From the IMG/VR virus record IMGVR_UViG_2563366885_000004: 15,471 nt of DNA, one strand, 5' to 3'. The notes beneath the pieces were generated by a model that saw only the letters and a program-made list of their open reading frames with translations, did no database searches and was not told where the DNA came from. This document shows positions 2,231-15,471 of this stretch, in pieces (the first letter of the stretch is position 1; every line of letters begins with the position of its first letter). Source of the DNA: a virus (lineage: Duplodnaviria > Heunggongvirae > Uroviricota > Caudoviricetes). The position numbers and the translations under genes are program-made.

Positions 2231-2503
2231 TCAGTGTTTCCGGTCGACGGTGATGTTCAGGCCGCCTTCTGCAGTGGTTTCCACCCGGTACGGCACCTCG
2301 TGCTCTGCCGTGTGGGTGAGTGTGTTCATCAGTACCTGCAGGGCAGCCGCCTTTCCGTTGGTTGCCACAATGGCCTGAGCGGCAATGCTGATTAACGCCG
2401 TCAGGACGTGCTTCACATCGGTGAGGTCGCGGCATTCACACTCGTTGACATAGTGTTCAACAAGGGTTCGGGTGCGCTGTCGTGCTTCCTGTGGGGTAAT
2501 CAT
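2231..2503 (-). CDS. Hypothetical early protein (90 aa)
   Basis: GGGAGG RBS 7 nt upstream of ATG at 2503; ATGA overlap with the upstream zinc-ribbon gene. Confidence 0.5.
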   Translation of the reverse strand: MITPQEARQRTRTLVEHYVNECECRDLTDVKHVLTALISIAAQAIVATNGKAAALQVLMNTLTHTAEHEVPYRVETTAEGGLNITVDRKH

Positions 2504-2694
2504 TGCGCGTCCTCCCTGTCAGGGCGGGAGAATTCCATGACGGGCACGTCCGCCGAAAAATGCTGGCTGCAGTACGGACAGACCAGGGTGACACGTACTG
2601 CAGGTACGTGGTACTTACCGGACATCACGGCGATGGCGCTGTGAAAACGCAGGGCTGTTATATCCCTCTCGCACTGAATACATTTAAATATCAT
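2500..2694 (-). CDS. Small zinc-ribbon protein (64 aa, CxxC ... CxxC)
   Basis: Two Cys pairs (CIQC and CPYC) in a 64-aa ORF. GAGGAG RBS upstream of ATG at 2694. Confidence 0.5.
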   Translation of the reverse strand: MIFKCIQCERDITALRFHSAIAVMSGKYHVPAVRVTLVCPYCSQHFSADVPVMEFSRPDREDAQ

Positions 2695-2791
2695 AATTTA
2701 ATTCTCCTCTGTTTCCGGCGTGCAGAAGCCCACGGCGCTGACGCCGGAATAAAAAAGAAAATGTTTTTATTAAATAATTAACGTGGTGTGT

Positions 2792-3322
2792 TTACTGCAC
2801 ATCCTGCTCAAAAGGAATTATTGAAAAATCCTCAATATCACTTTTTATGGTAATACCGGGAATATTTTTCACGGCGTCCTTTTCATTCAGGATAGCGTCT
2901 TTATTTATTTCCTCTTTTACACGAATAAAGCGCTCAAGCCCCAGACGTCTCAGTAATTCAATAACATTATCCGCCCCACGGATACTGACTGATGGCGGAC
3001 GGTTTCGTCACTGCACCTCGCCGGTGGTGAGGTTAGCGAACTTCACCTTCCCGTTGCCGGTCAGTTCATCACGGTGTGCCTCACACCATGTCTGAATACC
3101 GGACTGCAGTTCGGCCATGCGTTTTTTCAGGCTCTCGGTGAGCGGGGCATAACGTGCGGTGATATCGCCAATGGCGTCATTCATTTCTGTTTCAGCCCTG
3201 ACCAGTTCACGTTGTGCGTCACCGAGTAGTCTGATTCCCTCAATGACCTCTTCACGTGTCCCCGGCACCCAGAGTGCTGCTGCGGCCTTGATACGTTTTG
3301 CACCTTTTGTACTTTTTGCCAT
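2792..3322 (-). pseudogene. gam: Mu Gam-like host-nuclease inhibitor interrupted by one in-frame TGA at 3008..3010
   Basis: Translation of 3008..3322 closely matches the Mu Gam N-terminus (MAK..KRIKAAAA...ETEMNDAI...WCEA.RDELT). The same frame continues after the TGA (RNRPPSVSIRG ... GITIKSDIEDFSIIPFEQ) and matches the Mu Gam C-terminus to a TAA at 2792..2794. The TGA aligns with a Trp in Mu Gam as I recall it. Confidence 0.75.
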
Positions 3323-12404: not shown

Positions 12405-12755
12405 ATGAAAAACCTGAAAAAATTCATTCCCCCTGTTAAAAAACCTCGCCTCAGCGGCTGGCTGCTGACCTCAGTGCTGTTGCTGGGCACCATCGCTCTG
12501 GTCTCACCACAGCAGCTGCCTGTTGTGATCTACAAGCTGGCACTCATCACGCTGGCAGCAGTGCTGGGTTACTGGCTTGACCGTTCGCTCTTCCCCAAAG
12601 CCCGTCCTGGTCAGTACCTGAAACATGACGACAGGCTGATGGCTGAAGGGCGTTTCCCGGTACAGACCGGCCTTCACCTGGTGTTTTCTGCTGCGTTAAT
12701 TCGCCGTGCACTGATTGTTGCAGCGGTCTGCCTGGCTGTTGCGATGGGGCTTTAA
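12405..12755 (+). CDS. Putative holin or lysis-associated membrane protein (116 aa, about 3 TM)
   Basis: AAGGAG RBS upstream of ATG at 12405. Three hydrophobic segments. Lies immediately upstream of, and coupled to, the endolysin gene (stop 12753..12755, next ATG at 12758). Confidence 0.5.
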   Translation: MKNLKKFIPPVKKPRLSGWLLTSVLLLGTIALVSPQQLPVVIYKLALITLAAVLGYWLDRSLFPKARPGQYLKHDDRLMAEGRFPVQTGLHLVFSAALIRRALIVAAVCLAVAMGL

Positions 12756-12757
12756 TC

Positions 12758-13498
12758 ATGAACTGGCCGCAGATCACCTGGATTGTATGCATGTCCCTGA
12801 AACTGGCTTTCGAAGCCTTTCGGGTCTTCATCAGAACCGAACGCCCGTCAGTCCGCGCCGGGACCTTTCTGGTTCATATGGCATGGGTATTCTTTGTCGC
12901 AATGTTGCTCTGGTGTGGCGGCTTTTTCAGCCAGGCATGCGCAGCACAACCTCCGCAGGCTGCGCTGCAGTATCGCGATGATGTGATCCGTAATGCCCGG
13001 CTTGAATGGGGACTGTCTGCGCCGGTGGCCGATTTCGCCGCGCAACTGCATCAGGAAAGCGGCTGGCGACCTGATGCGATCTCGCCGGCTGGCGCTCAGG
13101 GACTGGCGCAGTTCATGCCTGCCACTGCCGACTGGATAAGCCAGTTGATACCGATGCTGAGCAGTCGTGAGCCGTTTAATCCGGCATGGGCTATCCGGGC
13201 GCTGGTCAGCTATGACCGCTGGCTGTGGCAGCGTGTCAGCGCCGCCAGTGACTGCGAGCGTATGGCCATGACACTGTCGGGCTATAACGGTGGTCTGGGC
13301 TGGGTACAACGGGACAGGCGGCTTGCATCACAGAAAGGTCTGGACAGCACCCGCTGGTTCGGACATGTCGCCACGGTGAATGCCGGACGCAATGCGGCCA
13401 GCTGGCGGGAGAACCGCCATTATCCGCAGCGCATCCTGCGCGAACTGGCACCGCGATATCTCACATGGGGAGGCAGCAGTTGTGTGGCATCTGGTTAA
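12758..13498 (+). CDS. Endolysin, lytic transglycosylase (SLT domain)
   Basis: Motif QESGWRPDAISPAGAQGLAQFMPATA fits the SLT catalytic Glu-Ser region. A hydrophobic segment MAWVFFVAMLLWCGGFF precedes the domain (alternative start at 12878). Confidence 0.8.
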   Translation: MNWPQITWIVCMSLKLAFEAFRVFIRTERPSVRAGTFLVHMAWVFFVAMLLWCGGFFSQACAAQPPQAALQYRDDVIRNARLEWGLSAPVADFAAQLHQESGWRPDAISPAGAQGLAQFMPATADWISQLIPMLSSREPFNPAWAIRALVSYDRWLWQRVSAASDCERMAMTLSGYNGGLGWVQRDRRLASQKGLDSTRWFGHVATVNAGRNAASWRENRHYPQRILRELAPRYLTWGGSSCVASG

Positions 13499-14132
13499 AA
13501 AGCTGCCGTGGCGCGGCATTCTGCTGGCCATTCTTATCAATGCCTTTCTGGTCGGCCTGTATGCCATGGGATACAGAAGTGGTCATGACTCTGCAAAGCG
13601 TGACGGTGATACCGCGCTCAGTCAGTTGCAGTCAGCATTTGACGCGTACAAAACGGAGCAGGCAACGCTTGAGAATGCTGCGCTGCGGGCCTGGGCCAGA
13701 CGGTATCAGGAGCAGGTGGCCGCCGGGCAGCGGGCTGAAGCCGGTTATCTTGAGCAGATTGCTCAACTGGAGAGCCGGAATAAACAACTACAGGGGCAAA
13801 TTAACGATGTCACACAGCGCTGGATTGATGAAAAAGGTAAGAGCCATCCCATTGAGTGCGTGTTTACTCGCGGTTTCGTGCGCCAGTACAACGCCGCACT
13901 CGGATATGACAACGCATCCGTCGACACCGGTCATTCAGACTCAGTTGCCGCCGCTGGCACCCGCTCTGGCACAGCGACCGGGCAACCTGAAACCACTGAC
14001 ACCCGGTTACGCGATTCGGGTGTCTCCCAGCGTGACGTTCTCGCCAACATCATCGACAACGCAGGACAATGTCGTCGCTGGCGGAACCAGATAAACGCGT
14101 TACTGGATGAACGGGAAGGATTACAGAAATGA
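13482..14132 (+). CDS. Rz-like i-spanin (type II membrane protein with coiled-coil periplasmic domain)
   Basis: GTG start at 13482 with a GGGGAGG RBS, overlapping the endolysin stop. N-terminal TM segment LPWRGILLAILINAFLVGLYAM, followed by a Gln/Ala/Glu-rich helical region. Confidence 0.6.
   Translation: MWHLVKKLPWRGILLAILINAFLVGLYAMGYRSGHDSAKRDGDTALSQLQSAFDAYKTEQATLENAALRAWARRYQEQVAAGQRAEAGYLEQIAQLESRNKQLQGQINDVTQRWIDEKGKSHPIECVFTRGFVRQYNAALGYDNASVDTGHSDSVAAAGTRSGTATGQPETTDTRLRDSGVSQRDVLANIIDNAGQCRRWRNQINALLDEREGLQK
13828..14094 (+). CDS. Rz1-like o-spanin lipoprotein embedded in the +1 frame of Rz
   Basis: MKKVRAIPLSACLLAVSC signal-like N-terminus with Cys, followed by a Pro-rich mature region (TPVIQTQLPPLAPALAQRPGNLKPLTPG). 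Lies wholly inside the Rz gene. Alternative ATG at 13807. Confidence 0.45.
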   Translation: MKKVRAIPLSACLLAVSCASTTPHSDMTTHPSTPVIQTQLPPLAPALAQRPGNLKPLTPGYAIRVSPSVTFSPTSSTTQDNVVAGGTR

Positions 14133-14455
14133 CACTGCAGGTTGAATTCTGGACGGTGGTGAGTTTTCTGCTCACCTTCATGGGGTTTGTGGGAGGGCTC
14201 GCCAAATGGTTGTTCAGTAAAACAGAAGAACGCCAGGCGGCACGATTCGCCTCCCTTGAACAGGCCCTGCAACAATCCGCCTCCAACTGGGGCGAGCTGG
14301 AAAAAGAATTTATGCGATTTAAAGCGGATTTACCGCTGAATTATGTCCGTCGAGAGGATTATATCCGTGGCCAGACAGTCATTGAGGCCAAACTGGACGC
14401 GCTTTATAACAAACTGGAAGTGGTACAGCAGTACCGCAATACCGGAGGTCAATAA
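14129..14455 (+). CDS. Late-operon membrane protein (N-terminal TM plus coiled coil; Mu gp25-position)
   Basis: ATGA overlap with the Rz stop. GGAAGGA RBS. TM segment VVSFLLTFMGFVGGLAKWLF. Confidence 0.5.
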   Translation: MTLQVEFWTVVSFLLTFMGFVGGLAKWLFSKTEERQAARFASLEQALQQSASNWGELEKEFMRFKADLPLNYVRREDYIRGQTVIEAKLDALYNKLEVVQQYRNTGGQ

Positions 14456-14766
14456 TGGTCGATATTACCCGGGTACGCCGCGAATCCCTGCGCTGGAGTC
14501 TGCTGGTTGCCCTGAACAAGACCCGCCCTTACACCGCCAGCGAGACGCTGCTGCTGGATGTGTCCCGTGCCATCTACCCGGACACCACACCGCTGGAACT
14601 GCGACGCGAACTGGATTATCTGGCTGACCGTAAAATGGTTGATCTGGAGAAAAAACCTTCTGGCGACTGGTTTGCTGACCTGACCCGCCTCGGCGTAGAC
14701 CTGGTGGAATACACCGTGGAATGTGGTCCGGGTATTGCCCGCCCGGAAAAGTACTGGAGTGAATAA
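14455..14766 (+). CDS. Late-operon protein (Mu gp26-position), 103 aa
   Basis: GGAGG RBS. TAATG overlap with the upstream stop. No family recognised. Confidence 0.5.
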   Translation: MVDITRVRRESLRWSLLVALNKTRPYTASETLLLDVSRAIYPDTTPLELRRELDYLADRKMVDLEKKPSGDWFADLTRLGVDLVEYTVECGPGIARPEKYWSE

Positions 14767-15195
14767 TGGCCAGACGCAGCACAATAGAAAAGCTGCCGGA
14801 AGATGTGCGCCGCTGGCTTGAACGGGCGCTGACTGAATCCGGCTTCAGCGGGTATAACGAGCTGGAGTCCCTGCTGCGTGAGCGGGGGTACGTCATCAGC
14901 AAATCCGCTATCCATCGCTATGGACAGAAGATTGAGCGCCGCTATGGTGCTATCCGTGCGGCAACAGAAGCGGCCCGCATGCTGACCGAAGGCGCAGCAG
15001 ACGATCAGGATGCGCGTTCGGAGGCTGTGATAGCCCTTATTCAGACCGAGCTGTTCGAGAGTATTGTCCAGTTGCAGGAGGCGGAAGAAGGCGAAGTCGA
15101 TCCTAAAGAACGCGTGGCCCTGCTGTCGAAGGTGGCGAAGAATGTGGCTACGCTGTCCCGCGCGTCCGTCAACCTCAAAAAGTTCCAGTCTGAAG

Positions 15196-15471
<276 letters not shown>

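Follow-up and report, generated by a model that had tools for sequence, protein, structure and literature searches.

The window, by which we mean the whole stretch of 15,471 nucleotides that was analysed, shares 99.4% identity with Escherichia phage PhiKM (Bcepmuvirus), and its gene order is that of BcepMu genes 21-27, gene for gene. The element that hosts the genes described here is a transposable, BcepMu-like E. coli prophage. Its lysis genes begin with a holin, which is preceded by an AAGGAG motif upstream of its ATG (from reading of the sequence), and an SLT-domain endolysin with an N-terminal hydrophobic segment (residues ~37-55; hydropathy maximum at FLVHMAWVFFVAMLLWCGG). These two genes lie directly upstream of a pair of spanin genes, which thus occupy a lysis cassette position, and the last 17 nt of the endolysin gene overlap the start of the i-spanin gene (Table 1). 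The cassette was found in 638 of 5,426 complete E. coli genomes and is also spread across the Enterobacterales. The small-terminase gene of this prophage copy is interrupted by an IS21-family element, so the cassette may never serve virion release in this strain.

Table 1. Features of the lysis cassette, with positions in the window.
Feature	Position	Strand	Basis and remarks
Holin, first lysis cassette gene	12405..12755	+	Pfam PF13272 Holin_2-3, E=1e-41; PHROG 1528, E=5.5e-55
SLT-domain lytic transglycosylase endolysin	12758..13498	+	PF01464 SLT, E=1.8e-14; PHROG 669 endolysin, E=3.8e-69
Shine-Dalgarno GGAGG for i-spanin	13469..13473	+	Sequence reading; 8 nt before GTG 13482
i-spanin (Rz-like), 216 aa	13482..14132	+	GTG 13482, stop 14130-14132; PHROG 1403 'Rz-like spanin', E=6.8e-92, full length
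i-spanin N-terminal transmembrane domain, residues 12-30, GILLAILINAFLVGLYAMG	13515..13571	+	Kyte-Doolittle 19-residue window maximum 2.15
i-spanin periplasmic Cys126, motif CVFTRGF	13857..13859	+	Invariant in homologue alignment A1; aligned with BcepMu gp23
i-spanin Cys197, C-terminal helix	14070..14072	+	Invariant in A1; candidate homotypic disulfide like lambda Rz C152
o-spanin (Rz1-like) prolipoprotein gene, 95 aa	13807..14094	+	+1 frame of Rz, wholly embedded; alternative start 13828 (88 aa)
o-spanin signal peptide, MSHSAGLMKKVRAIPLSACLLAVS	13807..13878	+	Lipobox A-V-S-C at 13870-13881; PROSITE PS51257-type pattern match
o-spanin lipobox Cys25, predicted +1 of mature protein	13879..13881	+	TGC; aligned with lipobox Cys of B3, Tom33 and BcepMu gp24
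Conserved core of mature o-spanin, ASTTP...LPPLAPALAQRPGNLKPLTPGY	13882..14019	+	Overlies disordered linker of i-spanin
o-spanin C-terminal tail, 24 aa and TAA	14020..14094	+	Overlaps i-spanin C-terminal helix; own frame less constrained
BcepMu gp25-like membrane protein, not o-spanin	14129..14455	+	PHROG 462 'lipoprotein'; syntenic with BcepMu gp25

The GTG start of the i-spanin gene is also the one used in GenBank (PhiKM, KP12) and in RefSeq, and the first two residues of the protein (M1 and W2) are invariant across 26 homologue clusters. The protein is related to BcepMu gp23 (Rz; BLASTP E=1e-10), and tblastn matches include B3-like genes labelled 'Rz-like spanin'. A Pfam scan gave no Rz match, so similarity to the lambda Rz family was not detectable by this route. 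The transmembrane domain is preceded by KK and R. The AF2 model is of low confidence (pLDDT 61) and was used only for the layout of secondary structure, with no fold search; it places helices at residues 10-118 and 183-215 and disorder at 140-168. The long helices, with the transmembrane domain and the PHROG 1403 match, are in line with the initial annotation, which had described an Rz-like reading frame with an N-terminal transmembrane segment and a coiled coil.

Two periplasmic cysteines are predicted in the i-spanin. The CVFTRGF motif that contains Cys126 is common to BcepMu and B3. Cys197 has no equivalent in the Rz proteins of BcepMu and B3, whose o-spanins have a periplasmic cysteine instead. 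By analogy with lambda Rz C152 (PMC6139136), we infer that Cys197 may form a homotypic disulfide.

The o-spanin gene occupies the +1 frame of Rz ((13807-13482) mod 3 = 1), where ATGs occur at 13807 and at 13828 and the stop codon is the TAA at 14092-14094. It spans 0.50-0.94 of the Rz length, and embedded o-spanin genes typically extend from 0.4-0.5 to 0.9-1 of that length (PMC6139136). A Rz1-like gene wholly inside Rz in this frame had been proposed in the initial annotation, and the coordinates bear this out (13807-14094 within 13482-14132); the peptide quoted there, MKKVRAIPLSACLLAVSC, is present in the translation. The lipoprotein signal and proline-rich body that it ascribed to the inner frame were also found, as an AVSC lipobox and a mature protein of 71 aa (Cys + 70 aa) with 11 Pro, 12 Thr and 8 Ser. 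The signal was identified with our own re-implementation of the PROSITE PS51257-type pattern.

Cys25 (AVSC/A) is the predicted processing site because BcepMu gp24, B3 and Tom33 align at this second cysteine. Processing at Cys19 (PLSAC, with LSAC six residues upstream of AVSC) was considered and rejected, as the hydrophobic region that precedes it has only ~6 residues and the homologues align at the second cysteine, followed by [AGS][ST].TP. The lipobox varies among loci (AVSC, AASC, VVSC and VASC). Alanine at -3 departs from the strict [LVI][ASTVI][GAS]C consensus, with a precedent in the AAGC of B3, and an AWAC lipobox has been demonstrated to be functional (PMC6139136). The mature part, at 71 aa, falls between those of BcepMu (56 aa) and B3 (76 aa). 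The lipobox and the mature part, described at the outset as non-canonical and long, are both normal traits of the family. The processing site, also considered uncertain at the outset, is settled at Cys25 by homology.

Sorting of lipoproteins to the outer membrane requires that there be no Asp at +2 of the mature protein. Here the position is held by Ala, and in relatives by A, V, S or G; sorting of the o-spanin to the outer membrane is thus expected. Within the conserved core, a P-x-L-x-x-R-P...L-x-P-x-Y motif is invariant in the enteric, B3, Tom33 and BcepMu o-spanins. Similarity to KP12 and Phi06 in tblastn searches ends at residue 71. In the enteric clade, the mature o-spanin has no cysteine besides the one predicted to be lipidated.

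The start codon, called uncertain in the initial annotation, is most likely 13807. In favour of this start, the second Met is not shared by every relative: the codon at 13828 is missing in two intermediate loci (L093 and L094) and in B3 and Tom33, and the upstream Met is kept in each of the 50 distinct IMG/VR variants as well as in BcepMu, B3 and Tom33. The Shine-Dalgarno sequence of 13807 (AGGGG, 10-nt spacing) is mediocre and is not kept in every relative. The alternative is a genuine o-spanin that begins at 13828 (MKKVR...), with an 18-residue signal peptide and an identical mature product. This shorter form satisfies the full PROSITE-type rule, with K/R in the first seven residues and Cys at position 18. 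The 21 nt between the ATGs are near-invariant and could be a ribosome-binding region rather than coding sequence, and the residues between them allow some changes (S2L, A5T and S4N). Against this, the drop in synonymous variation described below starts at 13806-13809 and not at 13828, the second ATG is preceded only by GGA at 3-nt spacing, and BcepMu gp24 begins at the upstream Met in GenBank and in the portions of SpaninDB that were searched. We consider initiation at 13828 unlikely, though plausible.

The evidence that the +1 frame is a gene comes mainly from the distribution of variation among codon positions, which was analysed in sets of 13 and 57 distinct sequences. Upstream of the o-spanin gene, 83 of 101 third-codon positions of Rz are variable (82%); in the signal-peptide region this falls to 4 of 25 (16%; Fisher p=9e-10), and the drop occurs exactly at 13807. 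Over 13807-14020 as a whole, 21 of 71 are variable (p=3e-12). In the set of 57, the entropy at Rz position 3 falls from 0.85 to 0.16-0.21 bits, and in the core (13882-14019) Rz position 1, which is the wobble position of the o-spanin frame, has 0.49 bits vs 0.21 at position 3. The variable position moves to the o-spanin wobble position over 13941-14010 and returns to Rz position 3 in the tail (14020-14094; 0.475 bits vs 0.167 at position 1). Both frames are under purifying selection, which indicates that both genes are real.

The +1 lipoprotein frame is intact, lipobox Cys included, in 79 of 80 IMG/VR viral contigs (50 distinct proteins) and in 10 of 11 enterobacterial genome loci; in the eleventh the frame is open and the Cys is replaced by Tyr. 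Start, stop and lipobox Cys persist at Rz identities as low as 20-35%. The +2 frame contains stops throughout, in all sequences examined. Length of the open frame is not by itself evidence, because in the window the +1 frame is already open from 13465, for 209 codons. Relatives have stops upstream of 13807 in this frame, and only 13807-14094 stays open. Chance alone gave an out-of-frame ORF of 40 aa or more that carries a PROSITE-type lipoprotein signal in 1.1-1.4% of 5000 shuffles of the Rz codons, and in 0.3-0.4% of synonymous-codon resamplings.

It could be argued that the +1 frame is untranslated and that it is open and conserved as a side effect of selection acting on the Rz protein, codon usage or RNA structure. 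Alternative-frame ORFs are common in GC-rich genes, and the 209 open codons here would be one more case. Furthermore, Pfam and PHROG scans assigned the o-spanin to no family (only a spurious SEEK1 match at E=0.009), and no clean copy was found among 5.8 billion protein clusters, just seven chimeric or frameshifted gene calls. The missing family is uninformative because embedded genes are rarely included in such libraries, and since gene callers leave embedded genes out, absence from the protein databases is to be expected. If Rz alone were under selection, position 1 could not become more variable than position 3 over 13941-14010, nor could synonymous change drop from 82% to 16% precisely at an ATG. 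In addition, the conserved o-spanin core overlies a disordered and poorly conserved part of Rz, and the lipobox Cys, start and stop are retained in 79 of the 80 loci despite divergence of Rz. An untranslated frame is therefore highly improbable.

A separated spanin pair with the 14129-14455 product as outer-membrane partner, or Rz acting alone, is the least probable reading of all: the downstream gene follows Rz directly, with start and stop overlapping, is called 'lipoprotein' in PHROG 462 and in RefSeq for B3 (ORF28) and JBD67, and weakly matches the Rz-like phrog_739 (E=0.036), but its product has an N-terminal transmembrane-like segment (hydrophobic residues 7-25) in place of a lipobox signal peptide and cannot be lipidated because it has no cysteine, and Rz is not a unimolecular spanin because it lacks an N-terminal lipobox. 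BcepMu gp25, its counterpart, is annotated as 'putative inner membrane protein', and the RefSeq name in E. coli is 'membrane protein'. A releasin of the Mu gp25 type (DUF2730; PMC9239132) was also looked for, and the product gave no Pfam DUF2730 match at E<=0.1. The unimolecular type, exemplified by T1 gp11, was ruled out for Rz given its N-terminal transmembrane domain and the lack of both an N-terminal lipobox and a C-terminal hydrophobic segment.

The embedded Rz1-like gene is thus the preferred partner of Rz, and its closest known relatives are in the BcepMu and B3 groups. Searches of phage records with the o-spanin by tblastn recovered three close relatives only; distant ones were reached via the Rz frame and then by reading the +1 frame. 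The o-spanin is 35% identical to BcepMu gp24 (E=6e-6), which is annotated as 'Rz1, out of frame, embedded proline-rich protein', and can also be aligned to the +1 ORFs of B3 and Tom33. Identity of its core to distant relatives is 41-58%. Intermediate loci (L093-L101), with 40-52% Rz identity, bridge the groups. A signal peptidase II-type lipobox with a conserved cysteine is present, and conservation of the +1 frame reaches through related prophages as far as BcepMu and B3, so neither of the two grounds for rejection given in the initial annotation holds. To our knowledge, the spanin assignments of BcepMu and B3 are bioinformatic only. In the portions of the curated set SpaninDB that were searched (Kongari et al., 2018), BcepMu and B3 are listed as embedded i/o-spanin families, with the BcepMu o-spanin at 0.51-0.94 of the Rz length (0.50-0.94 here); the lipobox 'AVSC' does not occur in the portions of its supplement that were searched.

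The pair of Burkholderia phage BcepMu (gp23/gp24), grouped with phiE255 in the SpaninDB portions covered, resembles the enteric pair in its surroundings, with a holin, an SLT endolysin, Rz with a +1 Rz1, a gp25-like membrane protein, gp26 and TerS. It also shares a CVFT.GFVR motif in Rz and an RP...L.PGY motif in Rz1. However, identity is only 20-43% for Rz and 35% for Rz1, the lipobox of gp24 is LSAC rather than AVSC, its mature part is shorter, and in the enteric o-spanin a 7-aa insertion follows the N-terminal TTP. The enteric pair has lost the periplasmic Cys of gp24, its i-spanin gains the second cysteine, Cys197, and its host is a member of the Enterobacterales. Given the low identity, the enteric pair would probably form its own family, separate from BcepMu, under the BLASTCLUST clustering of SpaninDB. 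The family of Pseudomonas phage B3 (ORF27, with JBD18, JBD25 and JBD67 in the same SpaninDB portions) has an Rz homologue of 29-33% identity and an embedded +1 lipoprotein with an AAGC lipobox, a 76-aa mature part and a PPALKQRPG...LTP.Y core. Unlike the enteric pair, its o-spanin has a periplasmic Cys and extends 7 nt beyond the Rz stop as read here, and its i-spanin has one periplasmic Cys. With both subunits homologous and the cassette syntenic, the pair belongs to the lineage of BcepMu gp23/gp24 and B3 ORF27.

The Mu spanin genes overlap but are not embedded. The spanins of Mu-like D108 are classed as 'ovl' in the searched portions of SpaninDB. Mu gp23/gp23.1 is likewise a two-component spanin of a transposable phage, with its genes flanked by those for the endolysin and a gp25-type membrane protein (PMC9239132). 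The cassette described here differs from that of Mu in having a holin, and no sequence similarity was found between the two pairs. Likeness to lambda Rz/Rz1 is architectural: the o-spanin is in +1 and wholly embedded, the topology of both subunits is the same, the o-spanin is Pro-rich and unstructured, the i-spanin has two helical domains and a linker, and the genes end the lysis cassette (PMC6139136). In contrast, the mature lambda o-spanin has 40 aa vs 71 here, Rz1 C29 has no counterpart, and the endolysin here is an SLT transglycosylase with an N-terminal hydrophobic segment.

We conclude that the locus very probably encodes a two-component spanin with the embedded lambda Rz/Rz1 architecture, within the lysis cassette of a BcepMu-like E. 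coli prophage. Homology, selection in both frames and the conserved lipobox Cys are direct observations. The lambda and T4 paradigm serves as the model for the steps of function. In this scheme, signal peptidase II would cut the o-spanin before Cys25, which would then be lipidated, and the mature protein, 71 aa long and rich in Pro, Thr and Ser, would be carried by the Lol system to the inner leaflet of the outer membrane. The i-spanin would bind to the o-spanin, each through its periplasmic end, forming a complex that crosses the periplasm by way of the peptidoglycan mesh. Once peptidoglycan is removed by holin and endolysin, the complexes may oligomerise and collapse, fusing the inner and outer membranes so that the last barrier to virion release is gone. 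Homotypic i-spanin disulfides (Cys126 and Cys197) could provide covalent stabilisation, which is placed on the i-spanin because the mature o-spanin lacks any cysteine beyond the lipidated one. At least one periplasmic Cys is present in 507 of 528 spanin systems, and two in the i-spanin with none in the o-spanin is a common combination (PMC6139136).

Beyond this, we tentatively propose, as a rather doubtful extension, that the enterobacterial branch is a distinct spanin family in which the o-spanin has no periplasmic disulfide and stabilisation has shifted to i-spanin Cys197. Only the first ~46 mature o-spanin residues would be selected in their own right, with the last 24 a passenger of the i-spanin C-terminal helix. 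If so, the contact between i-spanin and o-spanin would be in the Pro-rich core and not at the extreme C-terminus, and the two conserved in-frame starts might also yield two precursor forms.

In summary, the two genes form a commonplace phage lysis pair of lambda Rz/Rz1 type, the sole notable feature of which is that it was missed by public annotation. The o-spanin gene is unannotated in GenBank phage records and in RefSeq, and the i-spanin is labelled 'lipoprotein' (RefSeq), 'hypothetical protein' or even 'OmpH family'. The main value of the finding is thus for annotation, as correct labels complete the lysis cassette of BcepMu-like prophages. The pair leaves the current picture of spanins unchallenged, and the series of relatives indicates that the cysteine requirement can shift between two overlapping genes.

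The locus at 13482-14132 very probably encodes an embedded pair of spanins, with an Rz-like i-spanin as the outer gene and an Rz1-like o-spanin in its +1 frame. This pair was proposed in the initial annotation, whose coordinates for both ORFs match the ORF list and the raw sequence, and the proposal is borne out by homology, a codon-position signature, distribution and lysis-cassette context. All defining features of an embedded two-component spanin that can be tested by sequence analysis are present.

Features of the spanin locus and its surroundings (window coordinates)
Feature	Position	Strand	Details
Holin	12405-12755	+	PF13272, PHROG 1528
SLT lytic transglycosylase	12758-13498	+	profile matches
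Rz-like ORF (i-spanin)	13482-14132	+	GTG 13482, stop 14130-14132; 216 aa
Embedded +1 ORF (o-spanin)	13807-14094	+	ATGs at 13807 and 13828; TAA 14092-14094
Small membrane protein	14129-14455	+	after Rz-like ORF
gp26-like protein	between 14129-14455 gene and small terminase	+	
Small terminase, Mu gp27 type	14766-15236	+	PF11985
IstB C-terminus	15253-15468	-	IS21/IS100-family element

The outer gene is an i-spanin. GGAGG lies 8 nt upstream of its GTG, and its first 17 nt are shared with the 3′ end of the preceding gene. Across its entire length the protein matches PHROG 1403 ('Rz-like spanin', E=6.8e-92); it also has weak matches to three further Rz-like PHROGs and aligns by BLASTP with BcepMu gp23 (E=1e-10; common motif CVFT.GFVR..NAA.G). 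Searches with tblastn recovered 'Rz-like spanin' genes in 45 B3-like Pseudomonas phages (29-33% identity). The N-terminal transmembrane segment and coiled coil originally proposed are in line with the predictions: residues 12-30 form the sole strongly hydrophobic segment, and an AF2 model (26 homologues; low confidence, pLDDT 61) predicts a long helix (10-118), a disordered stretch (140-168) and a C-terminal helix (183-215). Despite the low pLDDT, the predicted secondary-structure layout is clear, and it is the anchor-helix-linker-helix layout described for lambda Rz.

Escherichia phage PhiKM (genus Bcepmuvirus) shares 99.4% identity with the region; for Klebsiella phage KP12 and Escherichia phage Phi06_2974 B the figure is 85-88%. 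The plus-strand genes follow an order identical, gene for gene, to BcepMu genes 21-27, where gp23 is annotated as Rz and gp24 as 'Rz1, out of frame, embedded proline-rich protein'. Mu-type early genes (Mor activator, AAA transposition protein, rve transposase and Dam methylase) occupy the other strand in the remainder of the window. In the SLT endolysin ORF, about 36 residues precede a hydrophobic segment (37-55, FLVHMAWVFFVAMLLWCGG), which is followed by AQPP; the product may be a SAR or signal-anchored endolysin, or translation may begin at an internal codon. The small-terminase gene is interrupted at about 15195-15200 by an IS21/IS100-family element (within 14766-15471), the end of which reads TGTCAACGCCAAGATTATTGG...; DNA packaging by the prophage copy in the window is probably blocked. 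IS100 also disrupts this gene in E. coli 510016, at another point.

Three independent lines of sequence evidence (homology, codon positions and distribution) indicate that the inner +1 gene, with the product MSHSAGLMKKVRAIPLSACLLAVSC ASTTPHSDMTTHPSTPVIQTQLPPLAPALAQRPGNLKPLTPGYAIRVSPSVTFSPTSSTTQDNVVAGGTR, is real and under selection. A chance origin is improbable: when the codons of the Rz gene were shuffled 5000 times, 1.1-1.4% of the shuffles gave an out-of-frame ORF of 40 aa or more carrying a PROSITE-type lipoprotein signal (our own re-implementation of the pattern), as did 0.3-0.4% of synonymous resamplings. The +2 frame of the Rz gene is full of stops. In the window, the +1 frame already opens at 13465, and the 114 further codons upstream of the o-spanin start give a 209-aa ORF. 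This longer ORF arose by accident and does not merit annotation, because in relatives the +1 frame is interrupted by stops before 13807 and only 13807-14094 is conserved.

The +1 product aligns with BcepMu gp24 (35% identity, E=6e-6) and with +1 ORFs nested in Rz of B3, JBD67, Tom33 and TAB03; the lipobox Cys is in register across all of them. The aligned o-spanins have in common an invariant core, P-x-L-x-x-R-P-(4-5)-L-x-P-x-Y, which overlies the Rz linker, the stretch where Rz proteins are not alignable. In relatives with Rz N-terminal halves 20-48% identical, the o-spanin is 33-53% identical and its core 41-58%.

Of the 101 Rz codons upstream of 13807, 83 have a variable third position among 13 enterobacterial sequences. 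The proportion is 4 of 25 in 13807-13881 (Fisher p=9e-10 against upstream) and 21 of 71 across 13807-14020 (p=3e-12), with an abrupt fall at 13806-13809. Within 13941-14010, Rz codon position 1 (the third position of the +1 frame) accounts for nearly all of the variation. Mean entropies at Rz positions 1/2/3 (57 distinct sequences) are 0.47/0.34/0.85 bits upstream of 13807, 0.03/0.01/0.16 in the signal region, 0.49/0.17/0.21 in the o-spanin core and 0.17/0.18/0.48 over the last 25 o-spanin codons. This pattern implies that the +1 frame prevails between its start and roughly residue 71, and that the Rz frame regains dominance in the o-spanin tail, which coincides with the Rz C-terminal helix. 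We rejected RNA structure and selection on Rz alone as causes of the conservation, as neither would switch the wobble position.

Related prophages retain the ORF. Start, lipobox Cys and stop are kept in 79 of 80 IMG/VR loci (50 distinct proteins) and in 10 of 11 enterobacterial genome loci (Pantoea, Buttiauxella, Erwinia, Mixta, Trabulsiella and others). The exceptions, loci L018 and L090, both have a truncated Rz and seem to belong to prophages in decay, with damage to each of the overlapping genes. L018 (Mixta mediterraneensis, 2501-3094) was so marked because its lipobox Cys is replaced by Tyr (LLAVSY) and its Rz is truncated.

Uncertainty about the processing site, raised initially, is removed by the alignment, which sets cleavage before the second Cys (AVS/C-ASTTP; Cys at 13879-13881). 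The upstream LSAC motif was rejected as the site, since the hydrophobic core would be too short. Ala at +2 of the mature protein predicts sorting to the outer membrane by the established +2 rule for lipoproteins. The start was also considered uncertain; we favor 13807 over 13828 as the probable start, because the upstream Met is kept in all relatives and its counterpart in BcepMu gp24 is the start used both in the annotation and in SpaninDB. The second Met is absent from L093, L094, B3 and Tom33. The mature o-spanin is identical from either start. The lipobox was noted as non-canonical; it has Ala at -3, but variants across the enterobacterial clade (AVSC, AASC, VVSC, VASC) and in B3 (AAGC; BcepMu has LSAC) make it a family trait, and AWAC, also with Ala at -3, works experimentally (PMC6139136). 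The body is proline-rich as described (11 Pro, 12 Thr and 8 Ser in the 70 residues past the second Cys). At 71 aa, the mature part is long relative to lambda Rz1 only, falling between BcepMu (56) and B3 (76) in SpaninDB.

Two overlapping genes, both selected, thus lie within the lysis cassette, and their topology signals are those of an inner-membrane anchored helical protein and an outer-membrane lipoprotein. From lambda and T4 work (summarised in PMC6139136), the two proteins would join across the periplasm and be restrained by peptidoglycan; after endolysin action they would collapse, fusing the inner and outer membranes. By analogy, a disulfide confined to the i-spanin seems likely, because periplasmic Cys is absent from the mature o-spanin of the E. 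coli clade and invariant at two positions of the i-spanin (Cys126, 13857-13859; Cys197, 14070-14072), Rz C152 or Rz1 C29 alone suffices in lambda, and 124 of 526 o-spanins are without Cys (PMC6139136). We compared relative loci L005, L006, L008 and L093-L099 with the window. BcepMu and B3 have one periplasmic Cys in each protein; Tom33 (L006) has two in the i-spanin, the second not at the Cys197 position, and one in the o-spanin; the intermediates L096-L099 have two and one to two, respectively; and the E. coli clade and L093 have two and none. This shift along the lineage suggests that the two overlapping genes have handed the disulfide requirement from one to the other.

The gene following the spanins (14129-14455) matches PHROG 462, labelled 'lipoprotein', a label also carried by B3 ORF28 and JBD67 gp23. 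Its product, which lacks cysteine, combines a transmembrane-like segment at the N-terminus with an otherwise helical body, and is similar in position and topology to Mu gp25 'releasin' (PMC9239132). A Pfam search of this product gave no DUF2730 match at E≤0.1.

The pair is homologous to, and predicted to work like, BcepMu gp23/gp24 and the B3 embedded spanins, both entered in SpaninDB as embedded families; it is a divergent member of this kind and probably forms a sequence family of its own. The cassette was found in 638 of 5426 complete E. coli genomes. In PhiKM (XRL29435.1) and KP12 (UNI73688.1) the i-spanin is named 'putative lipoprotein' and the o-spanin is omitted; the RefSeq E. coli i-spanin (WP_000264664.1; L021 1683-2333) is named 'lipoprotein' and its embedded o-spanin is unannotated. 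Most i-spanin homologue clusters (n=414) are named 'hypothetical protein', and some 'OmpH family outer membrane protein' or 'aldo-keto reductase family protein'. The seven database proteins that contain the o-spanin sequence are all chimeric or frameshifted calls. The architecture is a textbook one in a known phage lineage, and the main use of the finding is annotation correction: the missing piece is a true lipoprotein gene, embedded in a gene misnamed 'lipoprotein'.
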